Of a stretch of DNA of 64,000 bases, positions 22,819 through 49,352 are shown piece after piece. How positions within the stretch are numbered: the stretch's first letter is position 1; the number at the start of each line of letters is the position of its first letter. A program made the translations under genes and the position numbers. Source of the stretch: an uncultured Gammaproteobacteria bacterium (lineage in GTDB: Bacteria; Patescibacteriota; Patescibacteriia; UBA9934; CAZDDW01); the NCBI GenBank assembly GCA_965231015.1, contig OZ246408.1:921908-985907 (forward strand), written 5' to 3'. The notes under the pieces are model-generated. The model was not told the DNA's origin. It did not search any database and saw nothing but the letters and a program-made list of their open reading frames with translations.

Positions 22819-23313
22819 ATGTTATCAATTCGATTAAGCCGTACTGGCAAAAAGAAGCAACCGCATTATCGAATCATTGTGATCGATAAGAAGCGAGATC
22901 CATGGGGTAAGTCCCTGGAAATCCTTGGCTCACGAAACCCTCGAAGCAAAGAAATGACTTTGAAAGAGGATCGAGTCAAGTATTGGCTCGAAAAAGGTGC
23001 CCAGCCATCCAAAAGTGTTTGGAACCTATTAGTAGAAGCTAAGATCGTTAAAGGAGATAAGCGCGGTGTAACCCACATCTCGAAGAAACGACAAGCTAAG
23101 ACTGCTGAGGCTGAAGCCGAGAAGGCTGAGAAGGTCAAGGAAGCTGAGGCTGCAGCTGCTCCTACCGAAGAAGCTCCAGATGCCCCACCAACAGAAGACG
23201 TGGCGGGGTCCCGCCAAGCTGACGATGGCGGGAAAGACAAGCCAGCTGAGGAAGAAAAAAAAGAAGAGGCTCTTACAGAGGAACCTAAGGAAGAAGAAGC
23301 CAAGGCAGAGTAA
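22819..23313 (+). CDS. rpsP: 30S ribosomal protein S16 with A/E/K-rich C-terminal extension
   Basis: MLSIRLSRTGKKKQPHYRIIVIDKKRDPWGK canonical S16 N-terminus. Confidence 0.9.
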   Translation: MLSIRLSRTGKKKQPHYRIIVIDKKRDPWGKSLEILGSRNPRSKEMTLKEDRVKYWLEKGAQPSKSVWNLLVEAKIVKGDKRGVTHISKKRQAKTAEAEAEKAEKVKEAEAAAAPTEEAPDAPPTEDVAGSRQADDGGKDKPAEEEKKEEALTEEPKEEEAKAE

Positions 23314-23372: not shown

Positions 23373-24437
23373 TCAGAGCTGAGTCTCCTCGCTCGTTAAT
23401 GCCCGAATCACGAGCGTACTTCCTTCAGTCCAGAACTCGTAAGCGTACGAGCCGACCGGAAGCGCTACCGAAACCCGAGCTTCATTCATAGAACTGGTTG
23501 ATCCCAGACTTACCTGGCGGATCAAAGTGATATCCCGAGTAGAGTAATCCTGTTTCAGACTACCCGAGAGCGAAGCTCCTCGGGTGAATACCACTGTGAG
23601 CTTGGGAATGGATTTTGTAAGCGAAACTTCGCTTTCCGACATCACCGGCCGCATCCGCCCAGCGTCGTCTTTCATGATTGCCTTTAAGACCGTGCCACCG
23701 CTTCCGGAGTGCCGCAATTCGAACTGCCCGCCCCAGAAACTGGTGCCGTCTTGCTGGTGATGGATCTCGAGCTCCTCGAGCGTAGTGACGATCCGCAATT
23801 CGTTACCGATTGCGGTCACGGAGGTGATTTCGTAAGGGTCGAAGGTGTTGAAACGAGTGTTGTCACTCTCTCGCTTCACACTCATACTTCCGCTTTCACA
23901 CACCCAACCATCCATAGGAGCCTGGTTCCGCCGGGGATCAAAACCAAGATCGGTCTTGATGGTGACCACGTCTGCATCCTCACCCCAGGGAAAACTGACT
24001 CGCAACATCGGGGAACGGTATGGCTCAGCAAAGTACCACTTGTAGAGCGCTCCGCCAAAATCACTGATTCGCTCCACGGTGATTCTGGAAAATTGGTCAG
24101 TATCCGGTTCGATCATCTTCTTCGGACCATCCGGTCCTTTGACAAACGGGAGTTTGACTTCAACGTAATTGCCGACCCAGGTGCCACGAGCACAAACTTC
24201 ATCCGGATAGGCCACAGGTCCAGAAAACTTCATCTCAACCTGGAAACCATCATCCCGAGTCAGTGAGTACCTCAGCTCCTGAACGCTAGGACGACTGTTC
24301 GTCCACTCACTTTCCTTGTCCCCAGCCCATTCCCAGGCCGGGTCGTAACCGGGCTCGTTCGGATCCTCCTGCGCTGTGGCAGTAAGGCTCACAAAATACA
24401 CGAGAATGAGTATCAATATACGCATCTTGCCCTCCAA
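23373..24437 (-). CDS. secreted hypothetical protein (signal peptide), GC about 52%
   Basis: MRILILILVYFVSLTATAQE signal; inserted on opposite strand inside rpsP-KH-trmD cluster. Confidence 0.6.
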   Translation of the reverse strand: MEGKMRILILILVYFVSLTATAQEDPNEPGYDPAWEWAGDKESEWTNSRPSVQELRYSLTRDDGFQVEMKFSGPVAYPDEVCARGTWVGNYVEVKLPFVKGPDGPKKMIEPDTDQFSRITVERISDFGGALYKWYFAEPYRSPMLRVSFPWGEDADVVTIKTDLGFDPRRNQAPMDGWVCESGSMSVKRESDNTRFNTFDPYEITSVTAIGNELRIVTTLEELEIHHQQDGTSFWGGQFELRHSGSGGTVLKAIMKDDAGRMRPVMSESEVSLTKSIPKLTVVFTRGASLSGSLKQDYSTRDITLIRQVSLGSTSSMNEARVSVALPVGSYAYEFWTEGSTLVIRALTSEETQL

Positions 24438-29392: not shown

Positions 29393-30214
29393 CTACAACG
29401 GACTCGCGATATTGCGGACCGCCGGATTGGTCACATGCGTGTAAACTTGCGTCGTCCTGATATTCTGATGCCCGAGCAAAGCCTGCACATACCGCACATC
29501 AACGCCGTTCTCAAGCAGATGAGTAGCGAAAGAATGCCGGAGCGAATGAAACGTGGCCGGTTTTTTTATATCCGCGTGATTAAGCGCGTGCTCAAATATT
29601 TTCTGGGCCGTTCTTTTGGTAAGCTTGCCGCCGCGCTGGCTTTCGAACACCAGCGCGTCGCTGTCCCTGCCAAGACAAAGCACTCGGAGCGGTTCAACGA
29701 GCGAATCCGGCAACACACTGATCCGGTCCTTTTTGCCTTTGCCCTGCCTCACGAATACGGTTTTGCCCTCAAGATCGAGATCTTGAACGCGCACAGCCAC
29801 CGCTTCGCTGACGCGCAGACCGGCGGCGTAAGCGAGGCCAATTAAAGTCCGGTGCTTGAGGTTACGGATCGTCCCGAGCAGGCGCAAAATCTCATCGCGA
29901 GTGAGCGTACTCGGCAAACGCTTAGGCCGTTTAGCGTACGGCAATTTCAGGTCAAACGACCTCCCGAGCAAGTTACGCGCGTAAAACATAATCGCCTGCA
30001 AATGCAGATTAATGGTCGAAGCCGCCGCATCGCCATCATGCTTGGCCAGTAAAAACGACCCGAGCTCGTCATGGTCAACGCGATTCGGATCCGGATATTC
30101 CAAAAAAAATGCTTTTAGCGATCCCAGGTACGACTTTCTGGTCGCCGGACTGTAGTTTTTGAGCTTCAGAAAACGATCAGTCGCCTCCAGAGCCTCGGAG
30201 GTTGAAACAAACAT
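29393..30214 (-). CDS. tyrosine site-specific recombinase (Xer-like; candidate integrase of adjacent cassette array). ORF opens at 30349 but MFVSTSE start at 30214 is more plausible
   Basis: R-H-R-Y catalytic set: GLRVSEA (box I), HSLRHSFATHLL (box II), LGHQNIRTTQVYTHV; only about 90 aa between boxes so no IntI-specific insert. Confidence 0.8.
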   Translation of the reverse strand: MFVSTSEALEATDRFLKLKNYSPATRKSYLGSLKAFFLEYPDPNRVDHDELGSFLLAKHDGDAAASTINLHLQAIMFYARNLLGRSFDLKLPYAKRPKRLPSTLTRDEILRLLGTIRNLKHRTLIGLAYAAGLRVSEAVAVRVQDLDLEGKTVFVRQGKGKKDRISVLPDSLVEPLRVLCLGRDSDALVFESQRGGKLTKRTAQKIFEHALNHADIKKPATFHSLRHSFATHLLENGVDVRYVQALLGHQNIRTTQVYTHVTNPAVRNIASPL

Positions 30215-30240
30215 AAGATTATGCTTAAATAAACAAAAAT

Positions 30241-30260
30241 CTCCCCTCGATTGTGGGGAG
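30241..30260. promoter_or_regulatory. hairpin ctcccctcgattgtggggag immediately upstream of recombinase start; candidate operator/attI-proximal element
   Basis: perfect 6-bp stem 27 nt upstream of the ATG on minus strand. Confidence 0.25.
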
Positions 30261-30382
30261 TCTAAATTTAAGGTAACATAAGTTTGTGCTTTTGTAAAGG
30301 GGTTGTACCTCACAAATATCCCCAAGCCGCATAATCTACAGCATCCCATCCTTTATCCGAACTTTACTTCACATATAAACGA

Positions 30383-38192: not shown

Positions 38193-38221
38193 TCCTCCTT
38201 CGCTAAAGCTTCGGAGGACAG
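38193..38221. repeat. 29-nt hairpin repeat tcctccttcgctaaagcttcggaggacag (copy 1, inserted into a G2-like repeat)
   Basis: identical copy at 44972..45000; flanking sequence taggacgccatcgcgagc identical to 35452..35469. Confidence 0.75.
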
Positions 38222-43392: not shown

Positions 43393-44878
<1,486 letters not shown>

Positions 44879-44971
44879 CTAAAGGAAAAATCTCGCCATC
44901 GGCGAGACATCCTAGGTCGAGATCTGACGCTGTCAGATCTTCGACGTTGCAATCGCTGAGCAAAGACAAAA

Positions 44972-45000
44972 TCCTCCTTCGCTAAAGCTTCGGAGGACAG
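44972..45000. repeat. 29-nt hairpin repeat copy 2 in 16S downstream spacer
   Basis: identical to 38193..38221. Confidence 0.75.
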
Positions 45001-45325
45001 GCAAAGACCGCCATTTGACGGTCTTTTTGATTTAACTTTTCGAATTTTTATGTATTGTCGGTAATGTTCGAGCTCTGATTCATTGCGAATATTACGGTCG
45101 TGGAAATTTCGTTGCCAAATTTTGATACCTGGTATCTCGAACCTGACAATACGCGTCACAGAAGATTTGAATGATTGAATAATTTGGCCAAGTGATGGTT
45201 GTTTCTGAACCGAATTGATGTTGTTTCGATATTTATTATTTCTAAACACAAAACTCCGCCAAAGGCAGGGCTATCAAATTTTCTTTGCCGGCCCAAAGAA
45301 AACCGGACCATATTTAAAACGAAAA

Positions 45326-45354
45326 GCGGGGGCAGATGGTGTGTCTGCCCCCGC
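45326..45354 (-). terminator. rho-independent terminator of 815-aa ORF
   Basis: gcgggggcaga...tctgcccccgc; on minus strand followed by ttttcgtttt. Confidence 0.5.
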
Positions 45355-45372
45355 ACGTTGCGTAGATAGGTC

Positions 45373-47820
45373 TCAGGTTTTCGCCGGACCTGAGTTACTG
45401 GAAGGATCATTGTCGTCGTCGGCCGAGTTGCCGCGACGCTTGGACGTGGACTCCGAACCGAGTGAACTCGACTCCTCGATCGAGCCGGAGTCGCCGTAGA
45501 CCGGCAACTCTTGAGCTTCAGTACCGTACTCGGGCATCCCCTCAGTCGTAGCCGCGGCCATGCTGGCCGAGTCATCAGGCTCGTCTTCGTCCGGATCAAC
45601 CAAGGATTGTTCCGAGGTATCCGGCTCGCCTTCGAGCTCGATGCTGCCGTCCGGATCGTGATACGACTCCTCGTCCGAGGGAACAAGCGCGATGCGTTGT
45701 TCCTGACTCGGCGTGCCAAGCGTAGTGTCCTCCCTCACACTGCCCTCGTCGATCTCCTCGGCCACGTCCGTGATGGGCGGTGGCGTGGGATCGACCATGA
45801 CCGGTGCCTCGACCTCTCGGTGCGAAAGCCCGGAGATGTCACGGGTTGGTGGAGGGGTGTCGACCGCTTCGTCCACAGTATCGAGATGAATCGGTGGAGC
45901 CGAATCTCCGACACTCGACTCGTCGTCTTCGTCCTCCGGACACCGACTCGGTCGCTCCTCGGTGGTATCACCCTCGAGTTCCGACTCCGGTTCAATTCCC
46001 GGTTCCGGAATTGGAATGCCGTCCTCGATCGCCTGCAGGCTGGCCGAAAGCGGTATCTCGGGCAGCTTTCCCCTGAAGCGAGGATGCTGCGGCGGCTTGG
46101 CCTCCGGGTCAGACGCATCAACGGTCTGCTCGGAAGGGAGATCCGAAGTGGTGAGCATCTTGAACTCATCAGACTCCGCCTCGTCTCCCTCACCTCCGGA
46201 CGGATCCGAGCTACTGCTCGAATCCGACTCATCAAACGACGAGGGCATGCTCATCATGGCAATCTCCTCGTCGGAGTTGGGCGGACCGTCATCCCGGAAG
46301 GCCTCTCCCTCTTCGTACTCGTCCAGTTCCCCAGCCGGAATGGCCGGTGGTGGAGCGGGTAGTTGCACGAGGGTGAAGTTGATCTTGGTAAGATCAAACT
46401 CTCGGGAGGTGATCTCGGCCTCGATCCTCATCATGGCTTCAACCATAGCCTCGCACAAGTCGATACTGCGGTTGATCGCGATCTTCTGAGCATCTGTGAA
46501 GAAGTCAAACACCTCACTGGCTTCGCCCTGCGGCAGAGCCAGATACACGGCCATGGCCGCGTTATCGAGGCATGCCAACTCTTCGAACTGACGCCGCGAG
46601 GTCGCGGTCGTGGTGCGACCCACGTGCTCGATGATGTCTGCGTGAGGCTGACGTACCGTAGCATGGTACAGGTGGAAGGCATAACGCGCGAACTCGTCGA
46701 GCTCGGAGCATTGACTGTCGGTGAGGGTCTGCTCCGGACTCTGCCGGCCAAGGATGCGCACGATGTCCGCCGGACGGATCATACGCAGATCCATCTGCCG
46801 GGCCACCCGAGCAAACACGTCCGGGTTGTGCTGGTACACGCGGCGCAGGAACTCCACGAGCTCCGGCGCCGAGTAGAACTCGAACGTCCAGACGAGCAGG
46901 CGTACCCACGTATTCAGGAGACGTGGTGGCAGCTCCTGGGGAGACCAGAACGGTTCACCCTGGGAGATGTACATGGCCGTACGGATAGTATCCGACCAAG
47001 GCACGTGCACAGCTGTCACAGCCGGCCGGATTCCGAGAGCCGGATCGATCCCGATCTCGGCCATCACCTGACGGTAGGCGTGATCGACCCCCATGAGGTC
47101 GTACCCCTGGGTAGCAAACACGAAACCGTTTAGATCCCCTTCCTGGTGCAAGAACGGGCTCACCGCCTTGAAGGGCTGGTGTAACTCTGCGGCCTGCAGG
47201 AACGAGACCCGCGTTTCTTCACTCGGTGCAGCGAGCGCCGTGAAATGGCGGGTCATCTCCGGGGATTGGATCCGGGCGAGCGTCAGCACAGCGTCGTCTT
47301 CCGTGTACACCCCAGTGCCGAACCGTCCCGTTGCAGCGTACCCGGGCAATTCCCGCTCGGTCATGATCTCCCGAATCCAGCCGGTCATTTGCCGGTTGAA
47401 CTCCTCGGGCTTCAGCGCCCCGGTCGACTGATCGATCGACATCATGGCGATGTACTCCAGCAGCTGACCAATGGCCGCCTCCTGAAGCTGCATGATGCTA
47501 GCGATCTCGCGGGCCTCGCGCCGGCGGTTCGTATCACGAATCAGCTGGGCTCGCAGGAAGCGCATGCGCTTGGCCTGCTCACCAATGAGGTTGCGATAGA
47601 AGTCCGGGAGTTCGATTCCCTGCTGCTCGGCCAGTCGGTACACCAGATCCGAGAACTCGTGATCCGGATCCCCGGCCGGGCGGTGCGCGATGATGCGCGG
47701 GTCGATAAGCGGTCGGGCACCGTTGATGACCCCGAGCTCCTTGAGGGCCTCGACGAGGTCATCGCCGAGGTAGTGCCGATATACGGCTTCCACTTCTTCG
47801 TTTCTGTCCTGCTCCAACAT
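45373..47820 (-). CDS. hypothetical 815-aa protein in about 63% GC island; folded N-terminal about 500 aa plus about 320-aa acidic S/D/E/P-rich disordered C-terminus
   Basis: single long minus-strand ORF spanning the island with its own terminator; plus-strand ORFs are Arg/Leu-rich antisense artefacts. Confidence 0.6.
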   Translation of the reverse strand: MLEQDRNEEVEAVYRHYLGDDLVEALKELGVINGARPLIDPRIIAHRPAGDPDHEFSDLVYRLAEQQGIELPDFYRNLIGEQAKRMRFLRAQLIRDTNRRREAREIASIMQLQEAAIGQLLEYIAMMSIDQSTGALKPEEFNRQMTGWIREIMTERELPGYAATGRFGTGVYTEDDAVLTLARIQSPEMTRHFTALAAPSEETRVSFLQAAELHQPFKAVSPFLHQEGDLNGFVFATQGYDLMGVDHAYRQVMAEIGIDPALGIRPAVTAVHVPWSDTIRTAMYISQGEPFWSPQELPPRLLNTWVRLLVWTFEFYSAPELVEFLRRVYQHNPDVFARVARQMDLRMIRPADIVRILGRQSPEQTLTDSQCSELDEFARYAFHLYHATVRQPHADIIEHVGRTTTATSRRQFEELACLDNAAMAVYLALPQGEASEVFDFFTDAQKIAINRSIDLCEAMVEAMMRIEAEITSREFDLTKINFTLVQLPAPPPAIPAGELDEYEEGEAFRDDGPPNSDEEIAMMSMPSSFDESDSSSSSDPSGGEGDEAESDEFKMLTTSDLPSEQTVDASDPEAKPPQHPRFRGKLPEIPLSASLQAIEDGIPIPEPGIEPESELEGDTTEERPSRCPEDEDDESSVGDSAPPIHLDTVDEAVDTPPPTRDISGLSHREVEAPVMVDPTPPPITDVAEEIDEGSVREDTTLGTPSQEQRIALVPSDEESYHDPDGSIELEGEPDTSEQSLVDPDEDEPDDSASMAAATTEGMPEYGTEAQELPVYGDSGSIEESSSLGSESTSKRRGNSADDDNDPSSNSGPAKT

Positions 47821-47924
47821 TGTGCCTTTCCCCCTGGCTGTTGCATGGTTGAAAATTCAGTTTTAAAAGAAGTTCGACCGCTCTCCGAGGAGGGCGGTCG
47901 TTGAGAGTTGTTGTGGCCGGCTAG

Positions 47925-48158
47925 TTAGCTGGCCAAGGCGACGACCTGCTCGGCCTCGCGACACAGCGCGGCGGGGAGCATGCCCCTGATGCGCCGAGCG
48001 CTAGACGTGAGCGTTGTCGCTCGGGTGTGCGTTCCAGAGAACGCGGCCCGTCCGATGTCACCACCGGCCGGGATCACCGTCACGACAGTTCCGTCGCTCT
48101 GGCGGATCTGCTTGGGGGCATACTTGCCCACACGCGGCTTGATGGTGGCGTCCATCGG
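47925..48158 (-). CDS. small hypothetical protein in high-GC island (start at MDATIKPR with GGAGAGGAGAG RBS)
   Basis: ORF 47925..48206; RBS upstream of internal Met. Confidence 0.4.
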   Translation of the reverse strand, partial: PMDATIKPRVGKYAPKQIRQSDGTVVTVIPAGGDIGRAAFSGTHTRATTLTSSARRIRGMLPAALCREAEQVVALAS

Positions 48159-48318
48159 TCTCTCCTCTCCTCGAGAAGCGTTTCGCAGGCGTATTCCTAC
48201 TGACACTTCTACATATATATTTCATCATATTCTAGGCAAAAAGTCAATCATTTTATGCTCAATTTAAGCAAATTTGGCTAAAATAAAGAAAAAACTAGCC
48301 GTTAGGCTGATTCTTCAA

Positions 48319-48373
48319 TGGTGCCGAGGGTGAGAATTGAACTCACGACACGAGAATTTTCAGTCCTCTGCTC
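48319..48373 (-). pseudogene. partial duplicate (3' about 55 nt) of tRNA-Phe
   Basis: ggggagcagaggactgaaaattctcgtgtcgtgagttcaattctcaccctcggcacca matches 3' two-thirds of adjacent tRNA-Phe with 2 mismatches; 5' part absent. Confidence 0.65.
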
Positions 48374-48427
48374 CCCCGCCATCTTCATGCTTGGCGGGAT
48401 ACCACTCGCAATAAAAAATGACTCCAC

Positions 48428-48502
48428 TGGTGCCGAGGGTGAGAATTGAACTCACGACACGAGGATTTTCAGTCCTCTGCTCTACCACTGAGCTACCTCG
48501 GC
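48428..48502 (-). tRNA. tRNA-Phe (anticodon GAA)
   Basis: GCCGAGGTAGCTCAGTGGTAGAGCAGAGGACTGAAAATCCTCGTGTCGTGAGTTCAATTCTCACCCTCGGCACCA cloverleaf. Confidence 0.9.
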
Positions 48503-48552
48503 TCCAAAGGAGTCATTTTTTAGTTGTAATCTTTTACAGCCACTTCGACTAA

Positions 48553-49131: not shown

Positions 49132-49210
49132 TGGTGGGCGTGCCTGGATTCGAACCAGGGACCCCAGTCTTATCAGGACTGTGCTCTAACCAACTGAGCT
49201 ACACGCCCAC
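49132..49210 (-). tRNA. tRNA-Ile (anticodon GAT)
   Basis: GTGGGCGTGTAGCTCAGTTGGTTAGAGCACAGTCCTGATAAGACTGGGGTCCCTGGTTCGAATCCAGGCACGCCCACCA. Confidence 0.9.
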
Positions 49211-49352
49211 ATTTGATCATTGAAATTACTTCAACTGATTCTAATGGACAGGGCCTAGTATAGCTAAAAAATGTAATTTTGGCAAGTCCTGGTAAAGACT
49301 ATGTTTCTGGGATAAAATAGGGTATAATCAAGCTACAATTAACCCAATATTT

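Follow-up and report, generated by a model that had tools for sequence, protein, structure and literature searches.

How does a block of GC-rich DNA come to stand beside a partially duplicated tRNA-Phe gene in an otherwise much more AT-rich genome? The question is raised by a 64,000-nucleotide stretch of contig OZ246408.1 (assembly GCA_965231015.1, positions 921,908 to 985,907), here called the window, from an uncultured bacterium that GTDB places in the Patescibacteriota, part of the candidate phyla radiation (CPR). The original prediction, made from the sequence alone, took the block for an island that had entered the 3' end of tRNA-Phe by site-specific integration, with a high-GC organism, perhaps an actinobacterial host of the cell, as its source. 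Our analysis leads to another answer, to which we assign a probability of roughly 0.55: the block would be a lineage-restricted accessory operon that has been exchanged within a hypervariable interval flanked by RNA genes, its high GC content being stable and the tRNA duplication next to it being a separate scar. Very little of the accessory genome of CPR/Patescibacteria has been characterised so far, and the routes by which such tiny genomes gain and exchange genes are an open question; the locus offers a concrete and testable case of gene exchange in CPR.

Results

The change in composition is abrupt. Measured per 300 nt, GC content moves from 0.38–0.43 (44950–45399) to 0.56–0.64 (45250–48249) and back to 0.47–0.45 (48100–48549), which delimits a segment of 2.9 kb (~45,320–48,210) with 60–64% GC against a background of 43%. 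The top two of the 64 1-kb windows by GC content fall inside this segment (47001–48000 with 0.620 and 46001–47000 with 0.604, the typical value being ~0.44), and those next in rank reach 0.541, in a window that overlaps the island, and 0.527, at the 16S ribosomal RNA (rRNA) gene. The excess is greatest at synonymous positions: GC content at third codon positions (GC3) is 0.74 in the large and 0.73 in the small of its two open reading frames (ORFs), as compared with 0.28–0.60, mostly ~0.42, in the other 30 long ORFs of the window, while the GC content of 0.66 at first codon positions (GC1) of the large ORF is partly due to amino-acid content. The abrupt high-GC segment, its one huge and one small minus-strand ORF (815 and 76 aa) and its foreign-looking composition, all three of which the original prediction had put forward, are thus as described, and the GC jump, the ORFs, the GC3 excess and the tRNA-Phe repeat discussed below are far beyond chance.

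Judged from its sequence, the block is best read as one compact and complete operon with an AT-rich control region of its own. All parts lie on the minus strand, in the order promoter, leader hairpin, small ORF, attenuator-like terminator, large ORF and terminator. The AT-rich promoter module (48212–48282), conserved in the related operon copies of contigs L001, L007 and L089, includes the conserved motif TTTAGCCAAATTTGCTT (48266–48282), which occurs nowhere else in the window, and a predicted pair of boxes, TTGACT at −35 (48242–48247) and TGAAAT at −10 (48219–48224), with a 17-nt spacer between them; this promoter was read from the sequence, and the list given by a consensus scan did not contain it. 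The 5' leader (48153–48211) is predicted to form a two-tier hairpin with an AAUA-type loop, followed by the ribosome-binding site GGAGAGGAGAGA (48159–48170, unique in the window) and the ATG of the small ORF. This ORF of 76 aa (47925–48155), whose ATG and ribosome-binding site are conserved, appears in the ORF list as 47925–48206, with 93 aa counted from a GTG start. Between it and the large ORF (45373–47820 in the ORF list, 815 aa) stands an attenuator-like intrinsic terminator, GACCGCCCTCC..GGAGAGCGGTC with a T-run (47861–47899), which is kept in 4 of 4 operon copies, with a compensatory change in L089. A strong intrinsic terminator (45316–45354; 11-bp stem with 9 GC pairs, followed by a T-run) ends the operon, and homology to L001 and L007 stops at 45313 by the end points of the blastn alignments.

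The 5' segment of ~350 nt that holds the small ORF shows an RNA folding z-score (z) of −5.8 relative to shuffled sequence, with values of −3.6 to −4.3 in sliding windows, and across most of the large ORF z lies between +0.7 and −2.3. The sole peak within the large ORF, at 46201–46500 (z = −5.2 against dinucleotide shuffles), covers the transition from the globular domain of the encoded protein to its acidic tail. An Rfam scan of 45200–48550 with E up to 1 gave tRNA-model matches at the tRNA-Phe gene and its partial copy and no match within the operon; on the opposite strand of the tRNA, RF04354 reached 26.6 bits, below its cutoff of 65.7. We envisage that transcription would begin near 48,212, that the structured leader and small ORF would end in a terminator limiting read-through into the large gene, and that the large protein would act on partners via its acidic, motif-bearing tail. 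Like known leader/attenuator operons, this one would have a conserved, structured 5' segment that contains an ORF and whose terminator hairpin precedes the main ORF by 40 nt; unlike them, it has an upstream ORF of 76 codons, much longer than classic leader peptides, and no Rfam match. It also differs from an integron cassette in carrying its own promoter and a plain terminator, and neither a repeated attC-like site nor an IntI was found in the window.

The large gene can be taken as protein-coding because its ratio of nonsynonymous (dN) to synonymous (dS) substitutions per site, 0.13–0.21, indicates purifying selection. In its product, an N-terminal part of ~485 aa with predicted mixed alpha/beta structure is followed by a C-terminal, acidic low-complexity tail of ~330 aa (89 D+E versus 16 K+R; isoelectric point, pI, 4.05), within which the conservation of short motifs extends as far as the most distant relative. 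The small protein has a pI of 10.8 and is thus basic. The window-type small ORF is probably also translated, because in L001 a frameshift is compensated so that its frame persists, and because the small ORF of L089 seems, by eye, to retain an xPAGx motif; by tblastn the small proteins of the window and L089 show no similarity. The small ORF has a dS of 0.23–0.25, compared with 1.1–1.2 for the neighbouring large gene. Neither island protein has a match in Pfam, NCBIfam, PHROG or PADLOC, and accordingly none to a toxin-antitoxin or defence family in Pfam, NCBIfam or PADLOC; a profile search of the PDB returned nothing better than E = 0.4. AlphaFold2 models of the N-terminal 500 aa of the large protein (from a four-sequence alignment) and of the 76-aa protein, with predicted local distance difference test (pLDDT) values of 41 and 50, respectively, were too poor for use.

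The operon family has a narrow distribution. Among 5.8 billion proteins searched with a word index, each island protein is represented by three clusters (90% identity), and a HMMER profile run against 1.84 billion representatives adds only P0007, with 28% identity and the same architecture but, again, no match in Pfam, PHROGs, NCBIfam or PADLOC, and the fragment P0008. Metagenomes at JGI contributed only two more copies, both of the P0003 lineage, and the family is known in total from about five Uhrbacteria-like contexts. No relative of the island proteins was found among the GTDB species representatives, in IMG/VR (2.9 million contigs), or in phage and plasmid records (tblastn for both), and across the protein, genome, virus and plasmid searches neither protein was found to have a homologue outside the Uhrbacteria-like contexts, whether in Actinobacteria or elsewhere. 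The closest relative of the window copy is L001 (dN 0.16), followed by L007 (dN 0.21–0.23), whose copy of the operon is 65–70% identical. The relatives' contigs that carry the operon are 3–5 kb long; L001 and L002 derive from runs SRR28370465 and SRR28093593, L003, L007 and L008 from JGI 3300018065 and sister samples, and L089 from SRR20820740. As to the organism itself, RpoB is 78% identical to that of an uncultured Parcubacteria-group metagenome-assembled genome (MAG) and 68% identical to that of Magasanikbacteria, MgtC, whose gene adjoins tRNA-Phe, shares 86% identity with a protein that bears the name Candidatus Uhrbacteria, and the 16S gene is 93% identical to that of the same MAG, L090. 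On these sequence comparisons we consider the host an Uhrbacteria-like Patescibacterium, not a member of Saccharibacteria. Our search of the literature on islands in Uhrbacteria or CPR, and on the SRA runs, found nothing relevant.

The operon lies between an intact tRNA-Phe(GAA) gene (48428–48502, minus strand; ARAGORN, Rfam 75.6 bits) and the 16S rRNA gene (43394–44878, plus strand; Rfam RF00177, 1432 bits), which forms the conserved far boundary of an interval whose content changes from genome to genome. The order tRNA-Ile, MgtC, tRNA-Phe is conserved in six other contigs (L090, L091, L092, L093, L095 and L096), and in three of them (L090, L093 and L095) the 16S gene faces tRNA-Phe as it does in the window. 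In all six, an intact tRNA-Phe is followed by other genes, and the operon is absent. The interval is occupied by the operon and a transposase remnant in the window, by two small GC-rich orphan genes in L090 and L091, by six orphan genes in L093, by one AT-rich orphan gene in L092 and by a RelB/ParE pair in L095 and L096, these occupants being without similarity to one another, and its size varies with them (3.45 kb in the window, 1.47 kb in L090, 6.4 kb in L093 and 1.6 kb in L095). GC3 of the occupants is 0.80–0.83 in L090 and up to 0.73 in L093, and that of core genes 0.30–0.54. Because the syntenic relatives hold an empty or differently filled site, the operon can be regarded, as far as sequence comparison goes, as accessory; the original prediction had suggested looking for relatives with a tRNA-Phe site free of the island, and these six syntenic contigs provide them. 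Identity to the window decreases for tRNA-Phe in the order L093 (98.7%), L090 (96%), L092 (90.7%) and increases in the same order for MgtC (69%, 86%, 90%), an opposition that hints at exchange at the locus on the basis of too few sites to say more.

Some occupants deserve separate description. In the marine (TARA) contigs L095 (6798–7345) and L096 (3069–3616), the RelB/ParE toxin-antitoxin genes directly follow tRNA-Phe, which fits a site that collects mobile or addictive modules. The two GC3-rich (0.80–0.83) orphans of the Uhrbacteria MAG L090 (8520–9990), of 77 and 170 aa, have a cassette-like layout: each is preceded by an 80-nt repeated module with a perfect palindrome of 18+18 nt, GCACCAAATTATCCACGG/CCGTGGATAATTTGGTGC, and a TTGACA box, and behind each stands a terminator of 34 nt that is likewise repeated. 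The 16S gene of the window, whose 3' end points toward the variable interval, is complete and has no 23S or 5S gene with it anywhere in the 64 kb.

High GC content is a property of the operon in every copy in which it could be followed. GC3 of the large gene is 0.74 in the window, 0.71 in L001, 0.75 in L007 and 0.78 in L089, where the host flank has 0.39 and the small ORF 0.86. Between the three closer copies, pairwise synonymous divergence of the large gene is saturated (proportion of differing synonymous sites, pS, ~0.6; dS 1.1–1.2), and the GC content of 262 four-fold degenerate sites (GC4) is nevertheless 0.74 in all three. Changes polarised by parsimony number 23 from GC to AT and 13 from AT to GC on the window lineage, and 20 and 13, respectively, on the L001 lineage; counted per site at risk, AT-to-GC changes (0.19) are more frequent than GC-to-AT changes (0.10–0.12), which implies an equilibrium of ~0.61–0.64, compared with a host GC3 of ~0.42. 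Parsimony tends to over-count common-to-rare changes, so that this estimate would be conservative. The copies L003, L004, L007 and L008 differ by only 1–4 changes, too few to polarise mutation bias. Let us assume, for a rough estimate, a two-state relaxation toward 0.42 with at least 0.55 substitutions per synonymous site on each lineage. Then, about two-thirds of the excess should be gone, and an ancestor would consequently have needed a GC3 above 1 to leave 0.74 today. Because GC3 remains at 0.71–0.78 despite saturated dS, and because AT-to-GC changes are not under-represented, the composition is, on the branches seen, not ameliorating; such stability over saturated synonymous sites is a misfit with a recently imported, ameliorating gene.

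The duplication of tRNA-Phe has a geometry of its own. The partial, non-functional copy (48313–48373, minus strand; Rfam 30.3 bits, just above threshold) comprises tRNA positions 21–75 and 6 further nucleotides. Its part 48319–48373 corresponds to positions 21–75 with 54/55 identity, and the entire repeat amounts to 61 nt at 95% (48313–48373 versus 48422–48482), with starts 109 nt apart. The 26-nt 3' end of the tRNA occurs exactly twice in the window, with no match in any of 100 shuffles, and a third tRNA-Phe copy with up to 3 mismatches was not found in the window. Both copies are located to one side of the island, with 48–55 nt only bracketed by them, the sole DNA between them being a 54-nt spacer (48374–48427, minus strand). 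Beyond the partial copy, a hairpin with a T-run (48289–48309, minus strand) matches the terminators behind the intact tRNA-Phe of L092, L007 and L090; because of this match, the partial copy would mark the original position of the tRNA 3' end, with the native tRNA-Phe terminator still behind it, and the position of this terminator is kept, with compensatory stem changes, in L001, L007, L090 and L092. A simple tandem duplication of the tRNA is ruled out, since what comes after one copy is unrelated to what comes after the other. The explanation that fits best is a crossover in the tRNA gene with DNA bearing its own tRNA 3' part, followed by near-total loss of this DNA; the 48–55 nt with their REP-like hairpin would be what is left of it. 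The duplication is, then, a recombination scar separate from the island and not its pair of attachment (att) sites.

The relatives with the operon present three further arrangements. L001 begins at the same repeat boundary, and its partial copy has decayed further by two hairpin insertions. In L007 the operon stands directly behind a single intact tRNA-Phe, and this lineage either never had the duplication or lost it through recombination between the repeats. In L089, whose operon copy is the most distant one, 2.2 kb of other genes separate a tRNA-Phe 3' part from the operon; the tRNA sequence at the start of this contig (1–57) covers positions 19–75 and is 100% identical to the window tRNA, and between an AT-rich MFS gene and the operon L089 has a 184-aa orphan ORF (1503–2057) with a GC3 of 0.85 and a signal-peptide-like N-terminus. 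On either side of the intact tRNA-Phe of the window stand the arms of a perfect inverted repeat of 13 nt, AAAAAATGACTCC/GGAGTCATTTTTT (48509–48521 and 48413–48425), which extends the acceptor stem and is absent at the tRNA-Phe flanks of the relatives. No integrase was found in or beside the island, whose ORFs lack a match in Pfam, NCBIfam and PHROG, and none was seen in the relatives' contigs. The only recombinase seen in the window is a tyrosine recombinase (29393–30349, minus strand; Phage_integrase, E = 5e-46) located 15 kb from the island, with GC up to 0.58 and GC3 of 0.59, above its surroundings.

A GC-rich, REP-like hairpin (REP, repetitive extragenic palindromic), CCCGCCAAGCATGAAGATGGCGGG, occupies part of the spacer between the tRNA copies (48375–48398, minus strand). 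Its pattern CCGCCA..TGGCGG occurs twice in the 64 kb, with 0.05 expected, and similar hairpins are those inserted in the decayed tRNA copy of L001. On the other side of the operon lies a putative remnant of a REP-associated tyrosine transposase (RayT/IS200-like; 45040–45249, minus strand), a weak match in which the N-terminal HUH part is missing: the 162-aa ORF matches NCBIfam NF047646 in its C-terminal part only (E = 1.4e-6; 28.3 bits, cutoff 80) and has no Pfam match. L001 has a RayT-like start, ...MPDHFH..., at the equivalent place. The remnant ORF (44761–45249) runs into the 16S gene, and the overlapping part is probably spurious. Inside the same region, at 44972–45000, is one copy of a 29-nt hairpin-forming repeat, CTGTCCTCCGAAGCTTTAGCGAAGGAGGA, found again without mismatch on the same strand at 38193–38221 with unrelated flanks. 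The resemblance to REP/RayT systems consists in the RayT-like remnant beside the operon, the RayT-like start in L001 and the GC-rich hairpins around the tRNA copy; the differences are that the transposase match is truncated and far below its cutoff, and that the hairpins are few and only REP-like. The hairpins explain at most the decay of the tRNA copy, not the island.

Parts of the control region recur with another cargo. A second GC-rich cassette (GC 0.58–0.64, GC3 0.80–0.82) is present at L090:6066–7800, also in L091, and at L092:240–1985. It is placed between tRNA-Ile and a neighbouring gene of 369 aa, where the equivalent site of the window (49209–49352) is empty, and it consists of an ORF of 67–69 codons followed by a gene for a 460-aa GGDEF-like protein (Pfam 23.5 bits, cutoff 23.8). 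In L090, L091 and L092, this cassette has a related promoter region, TTTTAGCTAATTTGCTTGAC..., and the identical ribosome-binding site GGAGAGGAGAGA. The leaders of all six loci compared (window, L001, L007, L089, L090 and L092), each folded alone, adopt one common shape, a two-tier hairpin whose loop is of the AAUA type; z ranges from −0.7 to −4.8 and is at or below −2.6 in five of the six, and the stem sequences differ by cassette type. A covariance model of the leader, R1, has the operon leader as its sole match in the window, and in a search of the window plus 20 loci it retrieved only its source sequences and L091. At the nucleotide level, the cargo of either cassette type has diverged far more than the 5' segment with the small ORF; the GGDEF-type small ORF has dS 0.19 and dN 0.17, and its cargo dS 0.7–1.0. 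Relatedness of the 815-aa protein to the GGDEF-like cargo of L090 was considered and rejected (hhalign probability 0.1%), as was a common structure of the whole small-ORF RNA across cassette types, for which the alignment was unconvincing beyond the leader hairpin and ribosome-binding site.

Discussion

The object is an accessory island at a tRNA-linked hot spot, and as such of a known kind; what is unusual about it are the orphan proteins, the stable and extreme GC3, the lack of a recombinase and a control module common to another cassette. We propose that the content of the interval would be exchanged among related CPR genomes after DNA uptake. The most likely mechanism would be homologous recombination anchored in tRNA-Phe and 16S, the conserved flanks, for which a tRNA-targeting integrase would not be needed. 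Flexible genomic islands, a concept that comes from marine prokaryote pangenomics, are replacement regions of this sort between core flanks. Conserved flanks, unrelated content in each genome and the dispensability of a dedicated recombinase are common to those islands and to the interval described here. The present case differs in that both flanks are RNA genes, that the occupants are mostly orphans and GC3-richer, not AT-richer, than the core, and that at least two cargo types come with a common promoter-leader module.

Several considerations weigh against this proposal. We infer exchange from the arrangement of the locus, no recombination event having been seen directly, and recurrent adjacency to tRNA-Phe is also expected of an element that targets the tRNA; an integrase or a distal att site could sit beyond the ends of the relatives' short contigs, whose length of 3–5 kb also precludes comparing the divergence of host and cassette. 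The polarised counts behind the equilibrium estimate are small (23 versus 13 and 20 versus 13) and were obtained by parsimony at saturated sites. Expression of the operon and its regulation through leader and attenuator are predictions only, and neither homology nor the AlphaFold models (pLDDT 41 and 50) gave a function for the proteins.

How the GC content would be kept high allows two explanations. Either it would be maintained in place, through selection or through GC-biased gene conversion at a recombination hot spot, or the copies would have resided for long in GC-richer genomes. Gene conversion of this kind is reported for recombining bacterial genes (Lassalle et al. 2015, PMC4450053). 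The same process would explain here both the raised, non-decaying GC3 and an AT-to-GC rate above the GC-to-AT rate. A shift of GC3 from 0.42 to 0.74–0.86 seems much above the effects of gene conversion generally reported for bacteria. If the GC-richness is indeed maintained in place, it would represent an unusually strong local composition effect for a bacterium. As regards residence elsewhere, the names of Uhrbacteria MAGs at NCBI carry number labels from 36 to 58, which we take, from the naming scheme, to be GC percentages. If they are, GC-richer members of the same candidate phylum would be a more economical donor pool than Actinobacteria, and the block, if it reflects traffic from such members, would map a route of gene flow within CPR.

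One competing explanation, which we consider unlikely, regards the operon as the remnant or cargo of a CPR-specific, GC-rich mobile element that targets the tRNA-Phe region and whose mobility genes are lost or lie off the contigs. Patchy distribution and atypical composition would be natural for such an element, and so would the recurrent linkage to tRNA-Phe, including the tRNA-Phe 3' part 2.2 kb upstream in L089, the RayT-like remnant and REP-like hairpins alongside, the RelB/ParE genes at the same site in L095 and L096, and the past recombination inside the tRNA that the partial duplication reveals. Against these stand the lack of any relative in the 2.9 million IMG/VR contigs and in phage or plasmid records, the absence from all five contexts of genes for mobility, replication or structural proteins, and a flank away from the tRNA that differs in each genome.

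The recurrence of the leader with different cargo leads to a broader and rather doubtful scenario. The operon might belong to a class of undescribed modular CPR cassettes, in which unrelated GC3-rich orphan cargo, such as the 815-aa protein and the GGDEF-like one, is joined to a portable module of promoter, leader, ribosome-binding site and small-ORF RNA. If true, such cassettes would, in Uhrbacteria-like CPR, be shuffled without a recognisable recombinase into hot spots that tRNA and rRNA genes border, and biased gene conversion or selection would actively maintain their extreme GC3 within AT-rich genomes.

Somewhat less credible still is that the two genes are an old and native pair which descended vertically and has been lost from most relatives, and whose GC content is kept by selection on the gene itself. 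Such selection might act through codon choice, messenger RNA properties or a protein rich in Asp, Glu, Ala, Pro, Gly and Arg, and to this extent the notion agrees with purifying selection on the large gene, with a GC3 stable over saturated dS and with a GC1 of 0.66 that partly reflects amino-acid content; moreover, the promoter looks native, and the window and L001 have the decayed tRNA copy and the RayT-like gene as common flanks. Vertical descent has difficulty, however, in explaining why the content of the interval is wholly different even in L092 (MgtC 90%) and L090 (16S 93%), and why none of the GTDB species representatives has the gene. That RNA structure is ordinary over most of the large ORF also counts against it, and the opposed similarities of tRNA-Phe and MgtC in L093 and L092 hint at exchange.

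The scenario proposed at the outset, in which an integrase inserted an island of high-GC origin, for instance from an actinobacterial host, at the tRNA-Phe 3' end, is in our judgement very unlikely. tRNA-Phe loci are classic hot spots for integrase-mediated islands in enterobacteria, and the likeness is considerable: the block abuts tRNA-Phe, a direct repeat of 55–61 nt from the tRNA 3' end is present, the composition is atypical, syntenic relatives lack the island, and the association with tRNA-Phe recurs in L007, L001 and L089. Yet the repeats enclose 48–55 nt instead of the island and stand only ~50 nt apart, a third copy in the window and a distal att site were both looked for in vain, the island has no integrase within it or alongside, and the operon of L007 follows an unduplicated tRNA-Phe. 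The block is, in addition, a single two-gene operon with a promoter typical of the lineage, since promoter, leader and ribosome-binding site are common to another cassette of the same lineage, and its composition is not ameliorating in spite of saturated dS. Of the integration scar that had been claimed at tRNA-Phe, the partial 3' copy and its crossover-like form remain, and the role as scar of this island's integration does not, given repeats that bracket a mere spacer and the missing integrase. A recent import from a distant high-GC organism finds no support, our searches having given no homologue outside Uhrbacteria-like contexts and GC3 showing no decay. An actinobacterial host is not indicated because the organism is Uhrbacteria-like and not a Saccharibacterium, and with no actinobacterial homologue of either protein found in our searches, such a host is not supported as the source. 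A GC-rich island adjacent to a tRNA gene, this case cautions, is not automatically an integrase scar derived from the host of a symbiont.

Lastly, the possibility that a high-GC fragment of another organism was mis-joined into a CPR contig is practically negligible: the abrupt GC steps do lie near repeated or conserved tRNA and rRNA genes, typical places for mis-joins, but two Logan assemblies from separate runs, L005 (SRR7048225; window 48348–44671, from within the partial tRNA copy across the GC-rich block into the 16S gene) and L006 (SRR7048221; window 48348–44834), span both GC junctions at 100% identity, diverged copies recovered from further samples likewise have the GC-rich block between AT-rich flanks, contiguous with a promoter that is AT-rich, with tRNA-Phe and with CPR-type surroundings, and the AT-rich promoter and leader are conserved together with the GC-rich ORFs.

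Additional observations

Two features elsewhere in the window may be mentioned for their composition or pattern. At 23373–24437 (minus strand) there is an orphan ORF of 354 aa with a signal-peptide-like N-terminus, a GC content of 0.50–0.56, a GC3 of 0.60 and no match in Pfam. The second occurrence of the hairpin pattern CCGCCA..TGGCGG, at 23211–23231, falls in the C-terminal tail of the ORF at 22819–23313, which by eye is probably ribosomal protein S16, and may be a coincidence.

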